A DNA stretch of 64,000 bases from an uncultured delta proteobacterium (GTDB lineage: Bacteria; Myxococcota; Myxococcia; Myxococcales; Anaeromyxobacteraceae). The position numbers were made by a program, and so were the translations under genes. The notes beneath the pieces were generated by a model. That model worked only from the letters and a program-made list of their open reading frames with translations. It had not been told where the DNA came from and searched no databases. The DNA lies in assembly GCA_963814585.1 (NCBI GenBank), contig CAWFDF010000008.1, forward strand, positions 160,001 through 224,000, written 5' to 3'. Below, piece by piece: positions 13,698 to 21,946 of this stretch; the first letter of the stretch is position 1; each line of letters starts with the position of its first letter.

Positions 13698-13824
13698 GCG
13701 CTGCCAAGGAGCAAGAACCGGGCGAGCCCGGGTGCGCTCACCTGGCGGTGGCCACCGGGCCGGAAACGTGGTTACTTCTTGCCCCCAAAAGCGACCATTC
13801 CCCGCCCGGAACGGAGGCCAGTCC

Positions 13825-15216
13825 ATGATCACCGTCGAGAAGATCGGCGGCACCTCGATGTCGCACTTCGAGGACGTCATCAAGAACATCATGCTGCGGG
13901 ACCCGAAGCACGTCTTCGGCCGGGTCTACGTGGTCTCGGCCTACGCCGGGGTGACCAACCAGCTGCTCGAGCACAAGAAGACCGGCGAGCAGGGCGTGTA
14001 CGCCAGGTTCGCGGCCGGCGGCGACTACGCCGGCGCGCTGGACGCCCTCACCGGCAAGCTGAAGGAGATCAACCGGGGGCTGGCGGCGATCGGCCTGCCG
14101 CTGGCCGTGGCCGACGGCTTCATCTCGCAGCGCATGTCGGTGCTCAAGGAGTACCTGGACTCGATGCGCCACGTGCTGGCCTCGGGCTACCTGAAGCGCG
14201 AGAACGTGCTGCTGGCCGGGCGGGAGATGCTGGCCGCCATCGGCGAGGCCCACTCCGCCTTCAACAGCGTGGAGATCCTGAAGGCCAAGGGCATCCCGGC
14301 GCTCCTGCTCGACCTCTCCGGCTTCGACGACGACGAGCCGCTCACCATCGACGAGCGGATCCACGAGTCGTTCAAGGGCGTGGACCTGGCGCGCCAGGTG
14401 GTGGTGGTGACCGGCTACACCAAGGGCGTCGAGGGGATCATGCGGGAGTTCGACCGCGGCTACTCCGAGGTCACCTTCAGCAAGGTGGCGGTGGAGCTCA
14501 AGGCCGACGAGGCGGTCATCCACAAGGAGTTCCACCTCTCCTCGGCCGACCCGGAGATCGTGGGCGCCGGCAACACCGTGGTGGTCGGCAACACCAACTA
14601 CGACGTGGCCGACCAGCTGGCCGACGTGGGCATGGAGGCCATCCACCCCAAGGCCGCCAAGCCCATGGAGCTGGCCAGCATCTCCATCCGCCTCAAGAAC
14701 ACCTTCGAGCCGGACCACCCGGGCACGCTCATCACCAAGGACTACGTGGGCAAGCAGGCCCGCATCGAGGTCATCGCCGGCACGCCCAAGGTGACCATCG
14801 TCGAGATCCACGACCCCAGCATGGTGGGCACGGTGGGCTTCGACCTCGGCCTCATGCAGATCTTCCAGCGCCACGGCGTCTCGTACATCCTCAAGGCCAC
14901 CAACGCCAACTCGATCACCCACGTGGTCTGGGAGAAGTCGGCGACGCCGAGCTTCGTCGAGGAGCTGGAGAACACCTACGAGGTGGTCTCGGTGGTGCCG
15001 GCGGCGGTGGTCTGCGTCATCGGCTCCAACATCGCCATCCCCGGCGTGCTGGCGCGGGCGGCCCAGGTGCTGGCCGACGGGAAGATCAACGTCAACTGCG
15101 TGTCGCAGTCGCTGCGGCAGATCAACATGCAGTTCGTCATCGACCGGGCCGACTACAAGAAGGCCATCGCGGCGCTCAACAAGGCGCTCTGCCTGGAGCC
15201 GATCCGGGCGGCCTGA
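13825..15216 (+). CDS. aspartate kinase (Ask_Ect-like subtype) with C-terminal ACT domains
   Basis: TVEKIGGTSMS, VVSAYAGVTNQLLEHKK, FDRGYSEVTFS, HKEFHLSSADP, GMEAIHPKAAK. Confidence 0.9.
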   Translation: MITVEKIGGTSMSHFEDVIKNIMLRDPKHVFGRVYVVSAYAGVTNQLLEHKKTGEQGVYARFAAGGDYAGALDALTGKLKEINRGLAAIGLPLAVADGFISQRMSVLKEYLDSMRHVLASGYLKRENVLLAGREMLAAIGEAHSAFNSVEILKAKGIPALLLDLSGFDDDEPLTIDERIHESFKGVDLARQVVVVTGYTKGVEGIMREFDRGYSEVTFSKVAVELKADEAVIHKEFHLSSADPEIVGAGNTVVVGNTNYDVADQLADVGMEAIHPKAAKPMELASISIRLKNTFEPDHPGTLITKDYVGKQARIEVIAGTPKVTIVEIHDPSMVGTVGFDLGLMQIFQRHGVSYILKATNANSITHVVWEKSATPSFVEELENTYEVVSVVPAAVVCVIGSNIAIPGVLARAAQVLADGKINVNCVSQSLRQINMQFVIDRADYKKAIAALNKALCLEPIRAA

Positions 15217-15345
15217 GCGCGGACCGGCGGCCGGGGAGACCGTGAGACGGGGCGACCGGCCGGGGGCGACCGTGCGTCCGCGGCGCGACCGGGCGATCGG
15301 TCGCCTCCCCGGGTCGTGGTGGGCGCCACCCCTACATCCATGAAT

Positions 15346-15374
15346 TTGCAGGGTGCTTTCCGAGGTGCTAGATC
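15346..15374 (+). promoter_or_regulatory. putative sigma70 promoter of the lipoprotein/RiPP operon
   Basis: TTGCAG-N17-TAGATC with an extended -10 TG, in an AT-richer patch; AAGGAG SD before ATG 15425. Confidence 0.45.
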
Positions 15375-15378
15375 TCAC

Positions 15379-15392
15379 TTGACGCGGCGCAA
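15379..15392. promoter_or_regulatory. Fnr/Crp-like palindromic box
   Basis: TTGAC-GCGG-CGCAA versus consensus TTGAT-N4-ATCAA. Confidence 0.35.
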
Positions 15393-15424
15393 GCAGCCCG
15401 GCGCCCGGCCAAGGAGAAGCCCCG

Positions 15425-16464
15425 ATGCGCCGATCCGCCCTCCACGCACTGACCGTCACCGCGCTGATCGGCCTGGCCGCCTGCGGTGAGGCACCTCCGG
15501 TCGAGGCGACATCGGCCGATATCGCCGCGCCCGGGCCGGGACTCCAGCAGGTCTCCTTCACCGGCGTCGGCGACCCGGCGACAGGCCGGCTCCAGATCTT
15601 CATGGGACCGCAGGCGTCCATCGGCACCATCACCGAGGACAAGGACGGCAGCGCCGCCACGGTGACCGCCGACACGGCGCAGGTCTATGGCCCAACGCGG
15701 TCACCTTCATCGCCACGGGCGGCGTCGGGCTATCCGGCCGGTTGCAGCAACACGGCCGCCCTAGGCATGGTCGCCAACGTCGAGGTCTTCTCCGGCTTCA
15801 AGGAGCAGCTCCGCAACGTCTACGCCCGGATCACCAGCGTGAGCGGCGGCCAGACCTTCTGCACCAGGGCGACGCCCGGCGGCCATCGCGCCGCCCGCTC
15901 GGCACCTACTCCGGGCTCTACTTCTACCAGCCGCTCAACAGCTGGCACGTCCCCGAGCGCCATCAAGCGGTCCGGTCCAGTGGGCCCTGAACCTGCCCGA
16001 CAATGGCGCCCTTCTGGTTCAGCGGCGACGCTCTGCGCCGAGGTCATCCCGGCGCCGCCCGACCTGCGTCGCGCCGGCGGACAACCTCGTCATCCAATCT
16101 GCCACGCACAAGCCCCAGCGTCACCTTCTCCTGGACCAACGATCCGCGGGCCGACGGAGGGACCTCGGGCGAACGGCTATCGCCGTGGCGCGCCCGAGCG
16201 GCGGCGCCTACCTGACCGCTACGCAATGCGGGAGCGCCGGGACTGCTGCCGCGCCCATCGCCTTCGATCCGGAGCTCTGCCGTCGCGACGACCTACTACA
16301 CCCACGGACCCTTCAACCGGAGAACCACAAGCTACAGGGCTCGCTACGCCAGGGGATTCTGGTACCAGTGGACACTCCAGAGCGCCTTCCTCTTGCCCGG
16401 AGCGAGGACCACCCGGACTCTTGGAAGCACGTTCATGACCCGCCACTTCGCCGTCGTCCAGTAG
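15425..16464 (+). CDS. secreted lipoprotein of unknown function, multiple frameshifts (sequencing error or pseudogene)
   Basis: Lipobox GLAAC; protein-like segments continue across frames (VEVFSGFKEQLRNVYARITS, YSGLYFYQPL, VQWALNLPDN, PFWFSG, VTFSWTNDP, FWYQWTLQS) to TAG 16462-16464. Confidence 0.6.
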
Positions 16465-16481
16465 GCCTTGGGTCAGCCCCC

Positions 16482-16659
16482 ATGAACAACTCAATCACGC
16501 TTACGACGCCTGCCCCTCCCAGCCGGCCACCCCCGCGCCGTGCCCCTACGAGTCGCCCCGCCTCACCGGCAAGCGCGTCACTCGATCGGGTGACGCTCCT
16601 CAGCAGCGCGTCTCTGCGCGCCGAGCGACCCGCGTCCTGCACATATCGGTCACCTGTAG
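16482..16659 (+). CDS. putative RiPP precursor peptide (frameshifted in this assembly)
   Basis: ATG 16482; PYESPRLTGKR (TAC at 16547) matches the YxxPxL RRE-binding leader motif; LDRVTLLSS from 16581; LCAPSDP...IGHL-TAG (16657-16659); segments lie in three frames. Confidence 0.6.
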
Positions 16660-17662
16660 TGCCGCTGAGGACCGCTCCCGCTCGCGCTCGCCGCTCGCCG
16701 CGGCCCTGCTGGCCTGCGCCGCGGATCCCGCCCCCGCCCTGCCCCTGCCCCGACGGCTACCCGGCCACCGCGACGCGCCCGGCCGGCTGCAGCCCCGGAC
16801 GTCGACTGGCTCGCCTTCGCCTTCACCAGGCCAGGGCACGCTCGACGCCGGCCGTCTTCATCGGCAAGCCGGACGGCAGCTGCGCCCAGCGCCTCACCAC
16901 CGACGCGCGCCTACTACGGCGACCCGGCCTTCTTCCCGGGCGGCAAGAAGCTGGTCTACGCCAGCACCAGGAGCGGCCTGAACCAGCTCTACGTCCGCGA
17001 CCTGGTGACCGGCGCGGAGACCCGACTCGACACCACCTACACCTTCGCGCCGCCGACCGGCCACCGCGGACACGCTGACCGCCGCCATGCCGTCGGTCTC
17101 GCCGGACGGCGCCACCATCGCCTTCGAGGGAAGCCTGGCCGCCTACCCGGGCTGGAGCGACGTCTTCACGGTTCCGGTCGTCGGGCGGCGACGTGGCGCG
17201 GGTGACGCACGATCCGGCCGCGGCCACCAGCCCCAGGTGGTCGCCTGACGGGGCGCTCCTCTACTACCTCTCCTACCAGACGGGCGCCGAGGAGCTCTTC
17301 TCGGTCCAGCCGGACGGCACCGCCGAGGTGACCCGGATCACCACCGGCTCTGCGCTCTCCAGCCGGTTCGACGTCTCCGGCGACGGCCGGCGCTGGTCTA
17401 CGCCCGCCACTCGACGACCGGCGCCGGCCCCCAGCCGACCGAGCTGGTCGCCTACGACCTCGCCACCGCGCCGGTGCGCGTCATCTCCTCGGCCAACGAG
17501 GCCGACCCGGCGGTGGACGCAGCGAACACCTCGGTGGCCGTCTCCCGCCGCAACGCCGCCAGCGGCTACGACCTCTTCCTGCTCGACTACGCCAGCGGCG
17601 CGGTGAAGCGGCAGCTCACCAGCTGCCCCGGCCAGGCCTTCGGCGCCGCCTTCGCCCGTTGA
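16659..17662 (+). CDS. TolB-like/PD40 beta-propeller lipoprotein, multiple frameshifts
   Basis: GTG overlapping the precursor TAG; lipobox ALLAC; PD40 repeats YYGDPAFFPGGKKLVYASTRSG, MPSVSPDGATIAFEG, SPRWSPDGALLYYLS, FDVSGDG. Confidence 0.7.
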
Positions 17663-18372
17663 CCGGCGCGGCCCCGCTCTTCCGGCTCCGCCAGGCCGCC
17701 CGCGGCCTGGCGCTGCGCGCCCTCCTGCCTCTCATGGTGAAGCAGCGGGCGCTCCCCGACCTGCTGGCCCGGCTCGACCTGCCGAGGGAGCCCGGCGCGC
17801 CACCGGGCGACGGCCAGCGCCGGCTGGCCGAGCGGCTCTTCCAGCCGCTCCGCTTCTGGCCCACCACCTGCCTCTACCGGGCGCTGGGGAGCTACGCCCT
17901 CCTGCGCGCCGCCGGGCAGGAGGTCCGGTTCGTCATCGGCGTCTCCAGGGCCGGCGGGGAGCTGGTGGCGCACGCCTGGCTGGAGCGCGACGGCCGGGCC
18001 ATCATCGACCGGCCCGGCCCCGGCGAGGGCTACGCGGTGGCCTACGCCTGGCCGGCCGACCCGGCTATGCTGCCGGCGCCGAGGGGGAACGCCAGCGTGC
18101 CCGGGATCAGCTGCAGCGACGACGCCGTGCTCACCGAGCTCCAGGACGGCACCGGCGTGCTGCTCCACCTCCAGACCCGCTTCTACTTCACGCTCAACCC
18201 CAGCGGCGTGCAGGCCTGGAAGCTGATCGGCGCCGGCGCCCGGGACGCCGCCGAGCTGGCGCGGCGGCTGGCCGCCGCCTTCCCGGACGCCGACCCGGTG
18301 AAGGTCCGGGCCGACGTCGACGCGCTGCTGGCCGACCTGGTGCGCGAGTCCCTGGTCGTCGTCCGGGGCTGA
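17659..18372 (+). CDS. lasso-peptide B2-type leader peptidase (Transglut_core3) fused to a C-terminal PqqD/RRE domain
   Basis: TCLYRAL...VRFVIGV...VAHAWLE (Cys/His) followed by VLTELQDGTGVLLHLQTRFYFTLNPSGVQAWKLI...DVDALLADLVRESLV. Confidence 0.85.
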   Translation: MTGAAPLFRLRQAARGLALRALLPLMVKQRALPDLLARLDLPREPGAPPGDGQRRLAERLFQPLRFWPTTCLYRALGSYALLRAAGQEVRFVIGVSRAGGELVAHAWLERDGRAIIDRPGPGEGYAVAYAWPADPAMLPAPRGNASVPGISCSDDAVLTELQDGTGVLLHLQTRFYFTLNPSGVQAWKLIGAGARDAAELARRLAAAFPDADPVKVRADVDALLADLVRESLVVVRG

Positions 18373-18379
18373 GCCGACC

Positions 18380-19327
18380 GTGCCGGCCTTCGCGCTCCAC
18401 CACCTGACGGTCAAGACCGTCTCCGCGCTGGACGTCGATCCCGGGGCGCTGCTGCTGGCCGGCTTCCCCCCGTCCGAGGACTGGCGCCGCCCCGCGCTCA
18501 CCATCGCCTTCGAGGCGGCCACCGGGCCGCTGCCGCCGCCGCGGGGTCCGGCCTTCTTCGAGCACGGCGACGTCTCCGTCCACCTCGACGGCGGCGTGGC
18601 GGTCGTCTCCGGGCCGGGCACCCGGCTGCGGGTCTCGGAGCGTGGCGAGCGGATCGACGGCCTGCTGGTCCCGGCCGCCGCCGGCGAGCCCCGCGAGGTG
18701 GCCGAGATCGACCTGATGCTGGCGCTGACGCTGGCGCTCCGCTCGCACGGCCTGGTCCACCTGCACGCCGCCGCCACGGTGTCGCCCTCCGGCCAGGTGC
18801 TGCTCATCACCGGGACGGGCGGCGCCGGCAAGAGCACGCTGGCCGCGGCGCTGGTGGCCGCCGGCCACGGCTACCTCGGCGACGACGTGGTCCTGGTCGC
18901 GCCCGGCGGCGCCCTGCTGGCCTTCCCCCGCCCCTTCCACCTCTCCCCGGCGTCGGCGCGCGCGGTGGGCGTCGAGGCCGGCCCGACGCGTCCCCGGACC
19001 GGCAAGGGCGACCTCGACGCCGGTGCCGCCTTCCCCGGCCGCTTCCGCTGGTTCGCCCCGGCGCCCGACCTGGTGCTGATGCCGCGCGTGGCCAGCCAGC
19101 CGTCCACGGCGCTGGAGCCGTCCACCCGGGCCGAGGGGCTCGGCGCGCTCCTCTCGCTCAGCGCCTTCGCCGCCTCGGCGCTCCCCGGGGCCGCCGAGCA
19201 GCGGGCCCGGCTGGCCTCGGTGATGGACGGGGCCCGCCCGGTGAGCCTGGCGCTGGGGCGCGACCTGCTCGACGACGCCGCCAGGACGGTGGCCCGGCTC
19301 GAGGCGGCGCTGGCCCGGAAGGAGTAG
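18380..19327 (+). CDS. HPr kinase-related P-loop kinase (RiPP peptide kinase type)
   Basis: HLHAAA, Walker A GTGGAGKST, YLGDDVV, LLAFPRPFHL. Confidence 0.8.
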   Translation: MPAFALHHLTVKTVSALDVDPGALLLAGFPPSEDWRRPALTIAFEAATGPLPPPRGPAFFEHGDVSVHLDGGVAVVSGPGTRLRVSERGERIDGLLVPAAAGEPREVAEIDLMLALTLALRSHGLVHLHAAATVSPSGQVLLITGTGGAGKSTLAAALVAAGHGYLGDDVVLVAPGGALLAFPRPFHLSPASARAVGVEAGPTRPRTGKGDLDAGAAFPGRFRWFAPAPDLVLMPRVASQPSTALEPSTRAEGLGALLSLSAFAASALPGAAEQRARLASVMDGARPVSLALGRDLLDDAARTVARLEAALARKE

Positions 19328-19421: not shown

Positions 19422-20513
19422 CTACCCCTGCCCCGTCGCCAGCCGGATCGCCTTGCAGAGCCCGGCGAAGCGCGGGATGCGCGCCGCCTCCGCCGGCGGG
19501 TGGAACGCCGCCTCGACGTGCTCCTCCGAGAGGCGCGGCACGAAGCCGGCCGGCAGCCGCGCCACGAAGGCCTCCTCGATGCAGCCTCGCACCGGTCCCG
19601 GCGGGCGCCCCAGCGAGACCGGGTCGTAGCCGAAGCCGTGGCGGTAGCCGAGCGGCGCCACGGCCACGTCGGCCCCGGTCTCCTCGCGGAGCTCGCGGCG
19701 AGCGGTCTCGATGGGCGTCTCCCCCGGATCCATCCGCCCGGTGACGGGCTGCCAGAAGCCGCCTCGCTCCGGCGCGCGCCTGAGCAGCAGCACGCGCCCG
19801 TCGGAGGCCACCGGCACCACCGAGACGGTGCGCAGCGGGTCCGGCCCCGGCGTGAGCCGCCGCCCCAGCGCCTCGGCGGCGTGCCGGGCCAGCTGGGCCT
19901 CCACCTCGTCGACCGGCGGGGCGGCCCGGCCACGCGCCGCGAGCTCGGCCGCCAGGCTGGTGACGCCGAGCCGCGGGTCGGCGATGCCGCACGGGACGAT
20001 CGCCTGGAAGTGGGCGAGATCCGGCGAGAGGTTGAAGGCGAAGCCGTGGCTGGTGATCCAGCGGGCCAGGTGGACGCCGACCGCGCCGATCTTCCTCGTC
20101 CCCACCCAGGCGCCGCGGTGCTCCTCGTGGCGGCCCGCCACCACGCCGTGATCGGCGCAGGTCCGGATCATCGCCTCCTCCAGCGCCGCCACGTAGCGGC
20201 GCACGTCGGGCCGATCGGCGAGGTCGAGCACCGGGTACCCGACCACCTGTCCGGGGCCGTGGTAGGTGACGTCGCCGCCGCGGTCGGTCTCGTGGAGCTC
20301 GAACCCCTGCGCCTCCAGCCAGGCCGGCGCGGCGATCAGGTTGGCCCGGTCGGCGCTGCGGCCGAAGGTGAGCAGCGGCGGGTGCTCGAGCAGGAAGAGG
20401 TGGTCGGTCTCCGGCGGGGTGGCCGCCCGCAGGGCGTCGCCGGCCAGGCGCATCAGCGCCAGCCCGTCCTGGTACTCGACGCGCCCGAGCCGGTGGACCT
20501 GCAGCGCCCTCAC
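19422..20513 (-). CDS. lipB: octanoyltransferase LipB with C-terminal NUDIX hydrolase domain
   Basis: LLEHPP, DRGGDVTYHGPGQ, RKIGAVG, ITSHGFA, IVPCGI; then WQPVTG and Nudix box GRMDPGETPIETARRELREETG. Confidence 0.92.
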   Translation of the reverse strand: MRALQVHRLGRVEYQDGLALMRLAGDALRAATPPETDHLFLLEHPPLLTFGRSADRANLIAAPAWLEAQGFELHETDRGGDVTYHGPGQVVGYPVLDLADRPDVRRYVAALEEAMIRTCADHGVVAGRHEEHRGAWVGTRKIGAVGVHLARWITSHGFAFNLSPDLAHFQAIVPCGIADPRLGVTSLAAELAARGRAAPPVDEVEAQLARHAAEALGRRLTPGPDPLRTVSVVPVASDGRVLLLRRAPERGGFWQPVTGRMDPGETPIETARRELREETGADVAVAPLGYRHGFGYDPVSLGRPPGPVRGCIEEAFVARLPAGFVPRLSEEHVEAAFHPPAEAARIPRFAGLCKAIRLATGQG

Positions 20514-21946
20514 GCCTTGGCGTCCGCCTTCTTGGGCCGCGCCGGGCGGTTGAGGGCGTGGATGGCCTCGCCCAGGGCCGCCTTGCAGGCCTCCATGAAG
20601 GCCTCGGGCAGCGTCGGATGGGCATGGACGGTGAGCGCCACGTCCTCGACGTAGGCCCCCATCTCCAGCGCCAGCGCCGCCTCGGCGATCAGGTCGGACG
20701 CCTCCGGTCCGCACATGGTGACGCCGAGCAGGAGGCCGGTCTTCCTGTCCCCCACCACCTTCACGAACCCTTCGGTGTGATCCATGGCGATGGCGCGTCC
20801 CAGCGCGCCGAAGGCGAACTTGCCGACCATGGGCTCGTGGCCGGCCGCCACCGCCTGCTCCTCGGAGAGGCCGACCGCCGCCACCTCCGGATCGCTGAAG
20901 ATGGCCGCCGGCATGGCCACCCAGTCGCGAGCGCTCTTCTTTCCGGCGATGACCTCGGCGGCGATCTCGCCCTCCCTGGAGGCCTTGTGGGCCAGCAGCG
21001 GTGGTCCGGAGAGATCGCCGACGGCGAAGACACTGGGCGCGCTGGTCCGGAACTGCGCGTCCACCTCGACGAAACCTCTCGGCCCGACCTTGACGCCGGC
21101 CGCCTCCAGCCCCAGGCCGTCGGTGACAGGCTTCATGCCGACCGCCACCAGGATCTTGTCGCAGGTGACGGACTGCTCGGCGCCGTCCACCTCGAACTTG
21201 ACGGCGAGCTCCTTCCCCTTCCTCTCGAAACCCCTGGCCTTGGCGTTGACGTGGACGGTGGCCTTGCGCAGTCGAAGCCCCTTCTGCACCAGCCGGACCG
21301 CCTCGGGGTCGATGCCGGCCAGGATGGTCGGCAGCGCCTCCAGGAAGGTCACCTCGCTGCCCAGCTTGGCGTAGACGGTGCCGAGCTCGAGGCCGATGAC
21401 GCCTCCGCCCACCACCACCAGCCGCCTCGGCACCTCGGGAAGGTCGACCGCCTCCCTGGCGCTCCAGACGTCCTTGCCGTCGAAGGCGAAGCCGGGGATC
21501 TCGATGGTGCGGGCGCCGGTGGCGAGGATGAAGGCCGGGGCCTCGAGGCGGAGCGGCTCGGCGCCGCCGGTCACCTCGACCGCGGTGGGCGAGACGAACC
21601 TGCCTGTCCCCTTCACCACCTCGACGCCGTTCCCCTTCTCGAGCTGGCCGACGCCACCGACCAGCTTCTTCACCACGCCGGTCTTGAACTCGCGCAGCCT
21701 GGCCACGTCCACGCGCGGGGAGTCGGCCAGGATGCCTCGCTCGGCGGCGCCCCGGACGTCCTCCACCAGGTTGGCCGCGGCGATGAGCGCCTTCGACGGG
21801 ATGCAGCCCCAGTTGAGGCAGACCCCGCCCAGCGACTCCTTCTCGACCAGCGCCACCCGCTTGCCGAGCTGGGCCAGCCGGATGGCGGCCACGTACCCGC
21901 CGGGGCCGGCGCCGACCACGACCGCGTCGAATGTCTTGGTTGCCAT
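20510..21946 (-). CDS. lpdA: dihydrolipoyl dehydrogenase (E3)
   Basis: GAGPGGY, GGVCLNWGCIPSK, HAHPTLPE. Confidence 0.97.
   Translation of the reverse strand: MATKTFDAVVVGAGPGGYVAAIRLAQLGKRVALVEKESLGGVCLNWGCIPSKALIAAANLVEDVRGAAERGILADSPRVDVARLREFKTGVVKKLVGGVGQLEKGNGVEVVKGTGRFVSPTAVEVTGGAEPLRLEAPAFILATGARTIEIPGFAFDGKDVWSAREAVDLPEVPRRLVVVGGGVIGLELGTVYAKLGSEVTFLEALPTILAGIDPEAVRLVQKGLRLRKATVHVNAKARGFERKGKELAVKFEVDGAEQSVTCDKILVAVGMKPVTDGLGLEAAGVKVGPRGFVEVDAQFRTSAPSVFAVGDLSGPPLLAHKASREGEIAAEVIAGKKSARDWVAMPAAIFSDPEVAAVGLSEEQAVAAGHEPMVGKFAFGALGRAIAMDHTEGFVKVVGDRKTGLLLGVTMCGPEASDLIAEAALALEMGAYVEDVALTVHAHPTLPEAFMEACKAALGEAIHALNRPARPKKADAKA

Follow-up and report, generated by a model that had tools for sequence, protein, structure and literature searches.

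The window analysed here is a stretch of 64,000 nucleotides (G000:C8:160001-224000) from an assembly of 18 contigs that is 92% complete and 4.3 Mb long. It contains a small gene cluster whose closest named loci come from Anaeromyxobacteraceae MAGs. The cluster is placed after an aspartate kinase gene (NF006614, window 13815-15216), a neighbour that we found again in L001, L002, L003, L005 and L150, and before a convergent lipB-like gene (window 19422-20714). The features are as follows, in window positions:

15328..15394, + strand: non-coding stretch upstream of the lipoprotein gene, conserved with L005 (two sequences only)
15425..16464, + strand: lipoprotein with an unnamed N-terminal beta-sandwich domain and an Fn3/Ig-like C-terminal domain, ∼10 breaks
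16482..16659, + strand: RiPP precursor gene, broken at five places, 29/44 residues identical to the L002 precursor
16547..16598, + strand: leader recognition stretch with Tyr(-17) at 16547, Pro(-14), Leu(-12) and Thr(-2) at 16593-16595
16599..16656, + strand: predicted core of 17-18 aa with Ser2 at 16602-16604, Cys at 16615 and 16638, and an IGH tail
16659..17662, + strand: TolB-like PD40 beta-propeller lipoprotein, 7-8 breaks, 229/317 residues identical to L002 and 246/323 to L004
17659..18372, + strand: fused B2 leader peptidase (N-terminal) and RRE/PqqD (C-terminal), 237 aa, intact, NF033537 54.6 bits (cut-off 33)
18380..19327, + strand: HPr-kinase-like peptide kinase, intact, with His, Walker A and Asp-Asp motifs

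The precursor lies in pieces between the two lipoprotein genes. The preliminary description had picked out an ATG at 16482, a TAC at 16547, the residues LDR from 16581 in the ATG frame and a third frame running to a stop. All of these are present, the third frame from 16612 with its stop at 16657-16659. The frames had been joined by at least three indels; the joining stands, but a reading like that of the orthologs takes five breaks, near 16518, 16577, 16614, 16633 and 16644. The frameshift-aware alignment to the L002 precursor reached its identities over four of them, and the alignment to L005 supplied the fifth near the start, which joins the ATG. Read in this way the precursor is ∼57-58 aa long. 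The leader stretch carries one extra base at 16577 and its spacing is exact once this base is removed. From the upstream stop to the precursor ATG there are 17 nt in the window and 18 nt in L002 and L005, and in all three the precursor stop overlaps the next start codon. In its six reading frames the window has two occurrences of the pattern Y..P.L; the genome has 216. This corresponds to ∼0.009 occurrences per 180 bp, so finding it by chance in the single gap upstream of the B2-RRE gene is unlikely. The longer pattern Y..PRL.GK, composed after the orthologs had been seen, occurs once in the whole assembly, at the precursor.

In the five closest loci the B2-RRE protein is 62-71% identical to that of the window. 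Four of them (L001, L002, L003 and L005) have an intact ORF of 56-64 aa between the same lipoprotein and TolB-like genes, whereas in the fifth, from G087, the precursor sits at the end of another contig and is cut by an inverted-repeat element. This element of ∼180 bp (L004:4811-4992 and L109) lies at the precursor-propeller junction of G087 and cuts the precursor end. The preliminary description had staked its reading on homologous loci having a small YxxPxL ORF at this position, and such an ORF was found in L001, L002, L003, L005 and L163/L168. The intact orthologs also have the leader, the Thr (at -2) and the short Ser-containing core that it had read from the window. In close relatives, which are soil and sediment bacteria, the intact ORF measures 56-67 aa. 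Scanning metagenome DNA with the pattern gave eight matches, two of them true precursors of identical sequence (L163 and L168) and six chance hits; scanning metagenomes with the precursor alignment gave 44 candidates, none of which was confirmed. In a tree of B2-RRE proteins the window groups with G090 and G091 (95/94). We are nearly certain that this is a real precursor gene in the lineage.

Of 92 family genomes, 27 have a B2-RRE match, which is strong in 25; the two genomes with weak B2 matches (G009 and G022) were left out of these 25 system-positive genomes, three of which match via the RRE only. Among 301 genomes sampled across the phylum 21 matched, and only three of these, all weak, were from outside the family. 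The precursor profile had strong matches in 24 of the 25 system-positive genomes, with up to seven per genome. One off-pattern candidate near an AsnB-like gene (L127, in G068) was removed before the precursors were counted. Thr follows Tyr at exactly 15 residues in 40 of 41 distinct precursors (Tyr-17/Pro-14/Thr-2 register). Core position 1 is Phe in 31 of 40, position 2 is Ser or Thr in 34 of 40 and position 3 in 2 of 40. The cores are 13-30 aa long and either Gly-rich or with two Cys. The window gene is an ordinary member of this family. None of the Pfam or NCBIfam models matches the precursors, and annotation easily misses them.

In the B2-RRE protein the B2 half comes first and has the Cys and His motifs. 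Fused lasso B proteins are generally known with a different domain order. The RRE had previously been placed at 18097-18372; the place was right, but it is the C-terminal half of one 237-aa ORF with a possible internal start at 18097. It matches TbiB1 (E 2.9e-5), and no further PqqD domain was detected in this genome. The kinase scores below all family cut-offs, though its His, Walker A and Asp-Asp motifs are of the kinds essential in BsfK (PMC10368454). We examined 26 B2/RRE loci, some of them short contigs, with local profiles built from those same loci. Of these, 22 encode the kinase and 21 PD40; the lipoprotein domain was detected in 18 and NTP_transf_5 in 17. Radical SAM genes (12 loci) and ABC transporters (11 loci) were less frequent, and no locus contained AsnB or a lasso cyclase. 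None of the 92 family genomes reached the lasso-cyclase cut-off of NF033535. Neither a cyclase nor AsnB was matched at all in seven of the 25 system-positive genomes (G036, G054, G055, G058, G059, G086 and G090), two of which are 98% complete and carry 6-7 precursors. AsnB-like genes do occur elsewhere in the genome of the window.

NTP_transf_5 was found in 21 of the 25 system-positive genomes compared to one of the 67 others. It follows the kinase in L001, L004 and L005 and is absent from the window locus, which has no transporter gene either. Both functions have candidates on another contig (G000:C9:188000-201000), where toxin-antitoxin-like genes surround a fragmented NTP_transf_5 homolog and both a WecA-like gene and an MsbA-like transporter gene lie nearby, the last two named by their likeness to scanned proteins. 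A further PF14907 match is located at C9:232778-233476. In L003 an AbiEi/AbiEii toxin-antitoxin pair occupies the NTP_transf_5 place (L003:10394-12122), and in G085 the NTP_transf_5 gene is on another contig. A second, stand-alone RRE is encoded besides the fusion at L001:9093-9368 and L003:9130-9420. In the genome of the window the system is scattered over the window, C4 and C9. On C4 (L152, G000:C4:342981-347400) there is a second, intact precursor; the lipoprotein encoded after it combines the shared N-domain with a metallophosphoesterase domain, and the propeller and radical SAM genes there are divergent. This second precursor would need the B2-RRE of the window in trans.

Three genomes differ in the peptidase. 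G055, G056 and G057 have the same kind of precursor with a stand-alone RRE and, instead of B2, an S24/S26-like peptidase (L100:4413-5291, L099:4832-6511 and G057:C113:6247-6819, respectively). In G055 this peptidase carries a fused GNAT domain, and in G056 its fusion partner is apparently the NTP transferase. The peptidase's score of 23.0 bits against Pfam S24 falls just below the cut-off of 23.3, and we did not find it in the genome of the window with the G055 protein as query. One leader family is hence served by two unrelated peptidases, and the second of these ties the family to the linear polyphosphorylated peptides (LPP; lppA-K-B-S-D-N) of Bacillota described by Popov et al. 2026 (PMC13381572).

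LPP is among the closest known systems. In both systems the leader is of the YxxP type with a TxxS junction: in the LPP consensus, as in LppA, Thr lies 15 residues and the phosphorylated Ser 18 residues beyond Tyr (PMC13381572), and 34 of 40 family precursors have Thr and Ser or Thr, respectively, at these two distances. The family does not share the middle part of the LPP consensus. Both have an HprK-like kinase and an RRE and lack the cyclase, and some loci of both lie beside polysaccharide genes. An NTP transferase, uncharacterised in LPP, and an MsbA-like transporter belong to the LPP set; in the family NTP_transf_5 and an ABC transporter occur in 17 and 11 of the 26 loci, and the window locus itself has neither of these two. 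The LPP leader peptidase, however, is SpI-like (S26), whereas the window has B2 and the family mostly a B2 fused to the RRE. Further differences are the phylum (Myxococcota compared to Bacillota), the 13-30 aa Gly-rich or two-Cys cores, the radical SAM in 15 of 25 genomes and the pairing with lipoproteins. None of the words Myxococc-, radical SAM and lipoprotein appears in the main text of PMC13381572. Because of the shared Tyr-Thr-Ser spacing the system is best read as an LPP-like variant of Myxococcota with a fused B2-RRE, and because of the different peptidase as a variant rather than a member. We found no paper on this Myxococcota system in the literature searched, which covered few subscription journals, and the supplements of PMC13381572 may list such clusters. 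The same source gives the biological role of LPP and of the NTP_transf_5 partner as unknown. The short cores, the intact set of four to five genes in public MAGs and a candidate site at the cell surface make that question testable.

On the observed gene, its conserved leader, the enzyme set and the absence of a cyclase we base a proposed pathway, each chemical step of which is taken by analogy. The precursor probably belongs to a cyclase-free, lasso-derived pathway whose product would be a short, unthreaded peptide with a phosphate on residue 2 and, likely, a disulfide that closes it. As in lasso enzymology, the RRE half of the B2-RRE protein would bind the YxxPxL leader and B2 would cut two residues past Thr 16593, at the predicted core boundary. 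The preliminary description had named the Ser residues in general as kinase targets. We narrow this to the Ser two residues past the predicted cut (16602-16604) as the likely acceptor of the HPr-like kinase, because the phosphorylated Ser of LPP lies 18 residues after Tyr, where the family keeps Ser or Thr. The phosphate may receive a sugar or a nucleotide from the NTP_transf_5 enzyme, whose gene is a direct neighbour in most relatives and lies at another place in this genome. Glycosylation is the weaker proposal, modelled on pseudomycoidin, where the nucleotidyltransferase adds a hexose to the phosphate (PMC8498205); LppN showed no activity in a heterologous host (PMC13381572). The MsbA-like ABC transporter would then export the core, the conserved pair of Cys could oxidise to a loop and the peptide might act at the cell surface with the neighbouring lipoproteins, which is the least certain step.

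Several observations run counter to this pathway. The window core has Ser at both positions 2 and 3. Among deltaproteobacterial kinases the closest one studied, BsfK, phosphorylates Ser3 and never residue 2 (PMC10368454), which counts against phosphorylation of residue 2. NTP_transf_5 and the transporter lie outside the window locus, the kinase is below the cut-offs and AsnB-like genes are present elsewhere in the genome. The core also has an Asp near position 9-10, depending on how the break near 16614 is read.

The machinery is tightly associated with the lipoproteins. Their N-domain, for which no Pfam or NCBIfam match was obtained among the members scanned, was found in 23 of 92 genomes, all of them within the 25 system-positive ones, and in none of the 67 others. 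The two exceptions, G026 and G027, have diverged lipoproteins beside their precursors. This co-occurrence goes beyond the papers searched. The C-terminal cargo varies between Fn3/Ig-like, propeller and metallophosphoesterase domains. Folds were predicted on the intact L002 ortholog: the N-domain model (pLDDT 63) matched a generic beta-sandwich best (Z 8.5, rmsd 3.9 over 114 residues), the C-domain gave only generic beta-sandwich matches with Z up to 7.4 and the Atlas matches were all <0.9. A pilin-like strand exchange, considered as a candidate, had no support in these searches. The complex prediction for the N-domain and the precursor gave no answer (score 0.00) and counts neither for nor against binding.

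It is possible, at somewhat below even chances, that peptide and surface lipoprotein are partners. We can offer a more detailed version only as a speculative and rather improbable proposal: the peptides would be dedicated partners of a new surface-lipoprotein family, one per lipoprotein operon, matured in trans by one B2-RRE and kinase, with a radical SAM loop in Gly-rich cores and a Cys pair after loss of the radical SAM, the window peptide being the disulfide form. Alternatively, the product would be a phosphoglycopeptide of the LPP type with a link to exopolysaccharide synthesis, and the lipoproteins would be co-inherited passengers on the same mobile module, which we consider unlikely. LPP clusters often lie in capsule loci (PMC13381572), the clusters of G033 and G027 adjoin WecA-like and glycosyltransferase genes, the NTP_transf_5 homolog of the window genome is near a WecA-like gene and an MsbA-like transporter, and co-occurrence among kin is not independent. 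Passengers, however, would not be paired anew with every extra copy, except if precursor and lipoprotein were duplicated together. The lipoprotein domain is present in 16 of 20 further precursor loci outside the B2/RRE stretches, where the precursors are far from the enzymes. Furthermore, precursor and lipoprotein copy numbers rise together, to 7 and 11 in G058 and to 6 and 7 in G059, with a Spearman correlation of 0.58 over 25 genomes that is due mostly to one genus, and kin are not independent. In several dispersed precursor-lipoprotein units (L134, L137, L138, L140 and L151) an AraC-family regulator often adjoins, and TetR was seen in L144 and L146, suggesting that these units may be separately inducible.

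There are two possible reasons for the breaks in the window. The precursor gene is probably intact in the organism and broken by long-read sequencing errors; that the breaks are real, and precursor, lipoprotein and propeller are decaying pseudogenes beside an intact B2-RRE and kinase that serve only the C4 precursor, is quite unlikely. The frameshift-aware alignment, in which the rows for the kinase and the aspartate kinase were left out, placed 10 breaks in the lipoprotein, five in the precursor, 7-8 in the propeller and none in the B2-RRE gene. Their confinement to ∼15690-17470 fits decay, as does the NTP_transf_5 gene not being adjacent in the window. If the window genes decay, the second precursor at C4:343-347 kb, which is intact and has a lipoprotein, a propeller and a radical SAM of its own, would account for the intact enzymes. 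In the precursor three near-invariant positions are altered (Pro at -15 is Ser, and both Phe at +1 and the final Pro are Leu), but Ser at -15 also occurs in one intact homolog (L101), and all three altered residues are themselves doubtful because no contig spans the precursor: the public contigs of five runs contained no long piece across 16510-16660.

Real bacterial gene decay is rich in substitutions and biased to deletions. Here the read-through of the broken genes contains zero stop codons and identity is not lowered, the broken propeller being 72% identical to L002 compared to 66% for the intact B2-RRE protein. Inserted bases are in strong excess: an extra base was assigned to 20 of the 23 breaks, a share that depends on the alignment scores since two missing bases and one extra are frame-equivalent. 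Several breaks are also absent from short-read contigs, in which single-base gaps relative to the window occur at 15943, 16008, 17046-17056, 17183 and 17387, all near breaks found independently; over the neighbouring broken genes these contigs are only 88-93% alike and may be from other strains. Similar patches of frameshifts appear across the assembly. In a frame model of four contigs, whose counts include gene junctions, 22 of 1237 two-kb bins had at least five shifts compared to ∼1 expected.

With lasso systems the family shares the YxxPxL leader with Thr at -2, the RRE (B1) and the Cys protease (B2), here fused. It lacks the asparagine-synthetase-like cyclase in the cluster, and Asp or Glu at core positions 7-9 is not conserved (20 of 40 precursors), so that on the cyclase and the ring acid the system falls outside the lasso class. 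An ordinary lasso precursor with a cyclase encoded elsewhere in the genome is very improbable and at the family level largely refuted: the canonical leader spacing, the B1-like RRE and B2, the AsnB-like genes of the genome and the Asp found at core position 9 of L002 and close to that position in the window would suit it, but acidic residues are absent from the core of the close ortholog L005, 16 of 40 precursors have none in residues 1-12, and the cyclase is missing from every B2/RRE locus and, like AsnB, from seven system-positive genomes.

Phosphorylated lasso peptides offer partial parallels to the cyclase-free pathway. The bsf cluster of Bradymonas sediminis is likewise deltaproteobacterial and has a Tyr-17/Pro-14/Leu-12 leader, B1, B2, a kinase acting near the core N-terminus and a nucleotidyltransferase. 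It differs in having a cyclase, in encoding B1 and B2 as separate proteins, and in its Ile at -2 and Ser3 site; the family lacks the cyclase and has Thr at -2 and a conserved hydroxyl residue at +2 (PMC10368454). Paeninodin and pseudomycoidin share the combination of an HPr-like kinase and a nucleotidyltransferase; in contrast, theirs are threaded peptides modified at a C-terminal Ser, and the family has no conserved C-terminal Ser (PMC8498205).

The cores themselves show a further pattern. A radical SAM gene is present in 15 of the 25 system-positive genomes and in none of the 67 others. Two-Cys cores were observed in six of the nine radical-SAM-negative genomes with a precursor and in two of the 15 positive ones, a distribution that amounts to about three lineages on the tree. 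G080, G085 and G026 have neither radical SAM nor two Cys, G059 has both and G054 is fragmented. That two-Cys cores tend to appear where the radical SAM is missing is a lead and not a result, and like the lipoprotein association it is absent from the papers searched. The family provides a natural comparison of radical-SAM-positive and Cys-containing cores. The second Cys in the window core, put forward as a possibility in the preliminary description, is backed by the read-through, in which two Cys stand six residues apart as in the C-x6-C cores of the three nearest orthologs (G087, G090 and G091). A radical SAM acting on the window peptide was considered and rejected: none was found in the 12 other genomes of the genus, and the copy in the genome of the window adjoins the other precursor. 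Upstream of the cluster, the stretch at 15328-15394, which includes a TTGAC hexamer-like stretch, is a likely promoter or operator.
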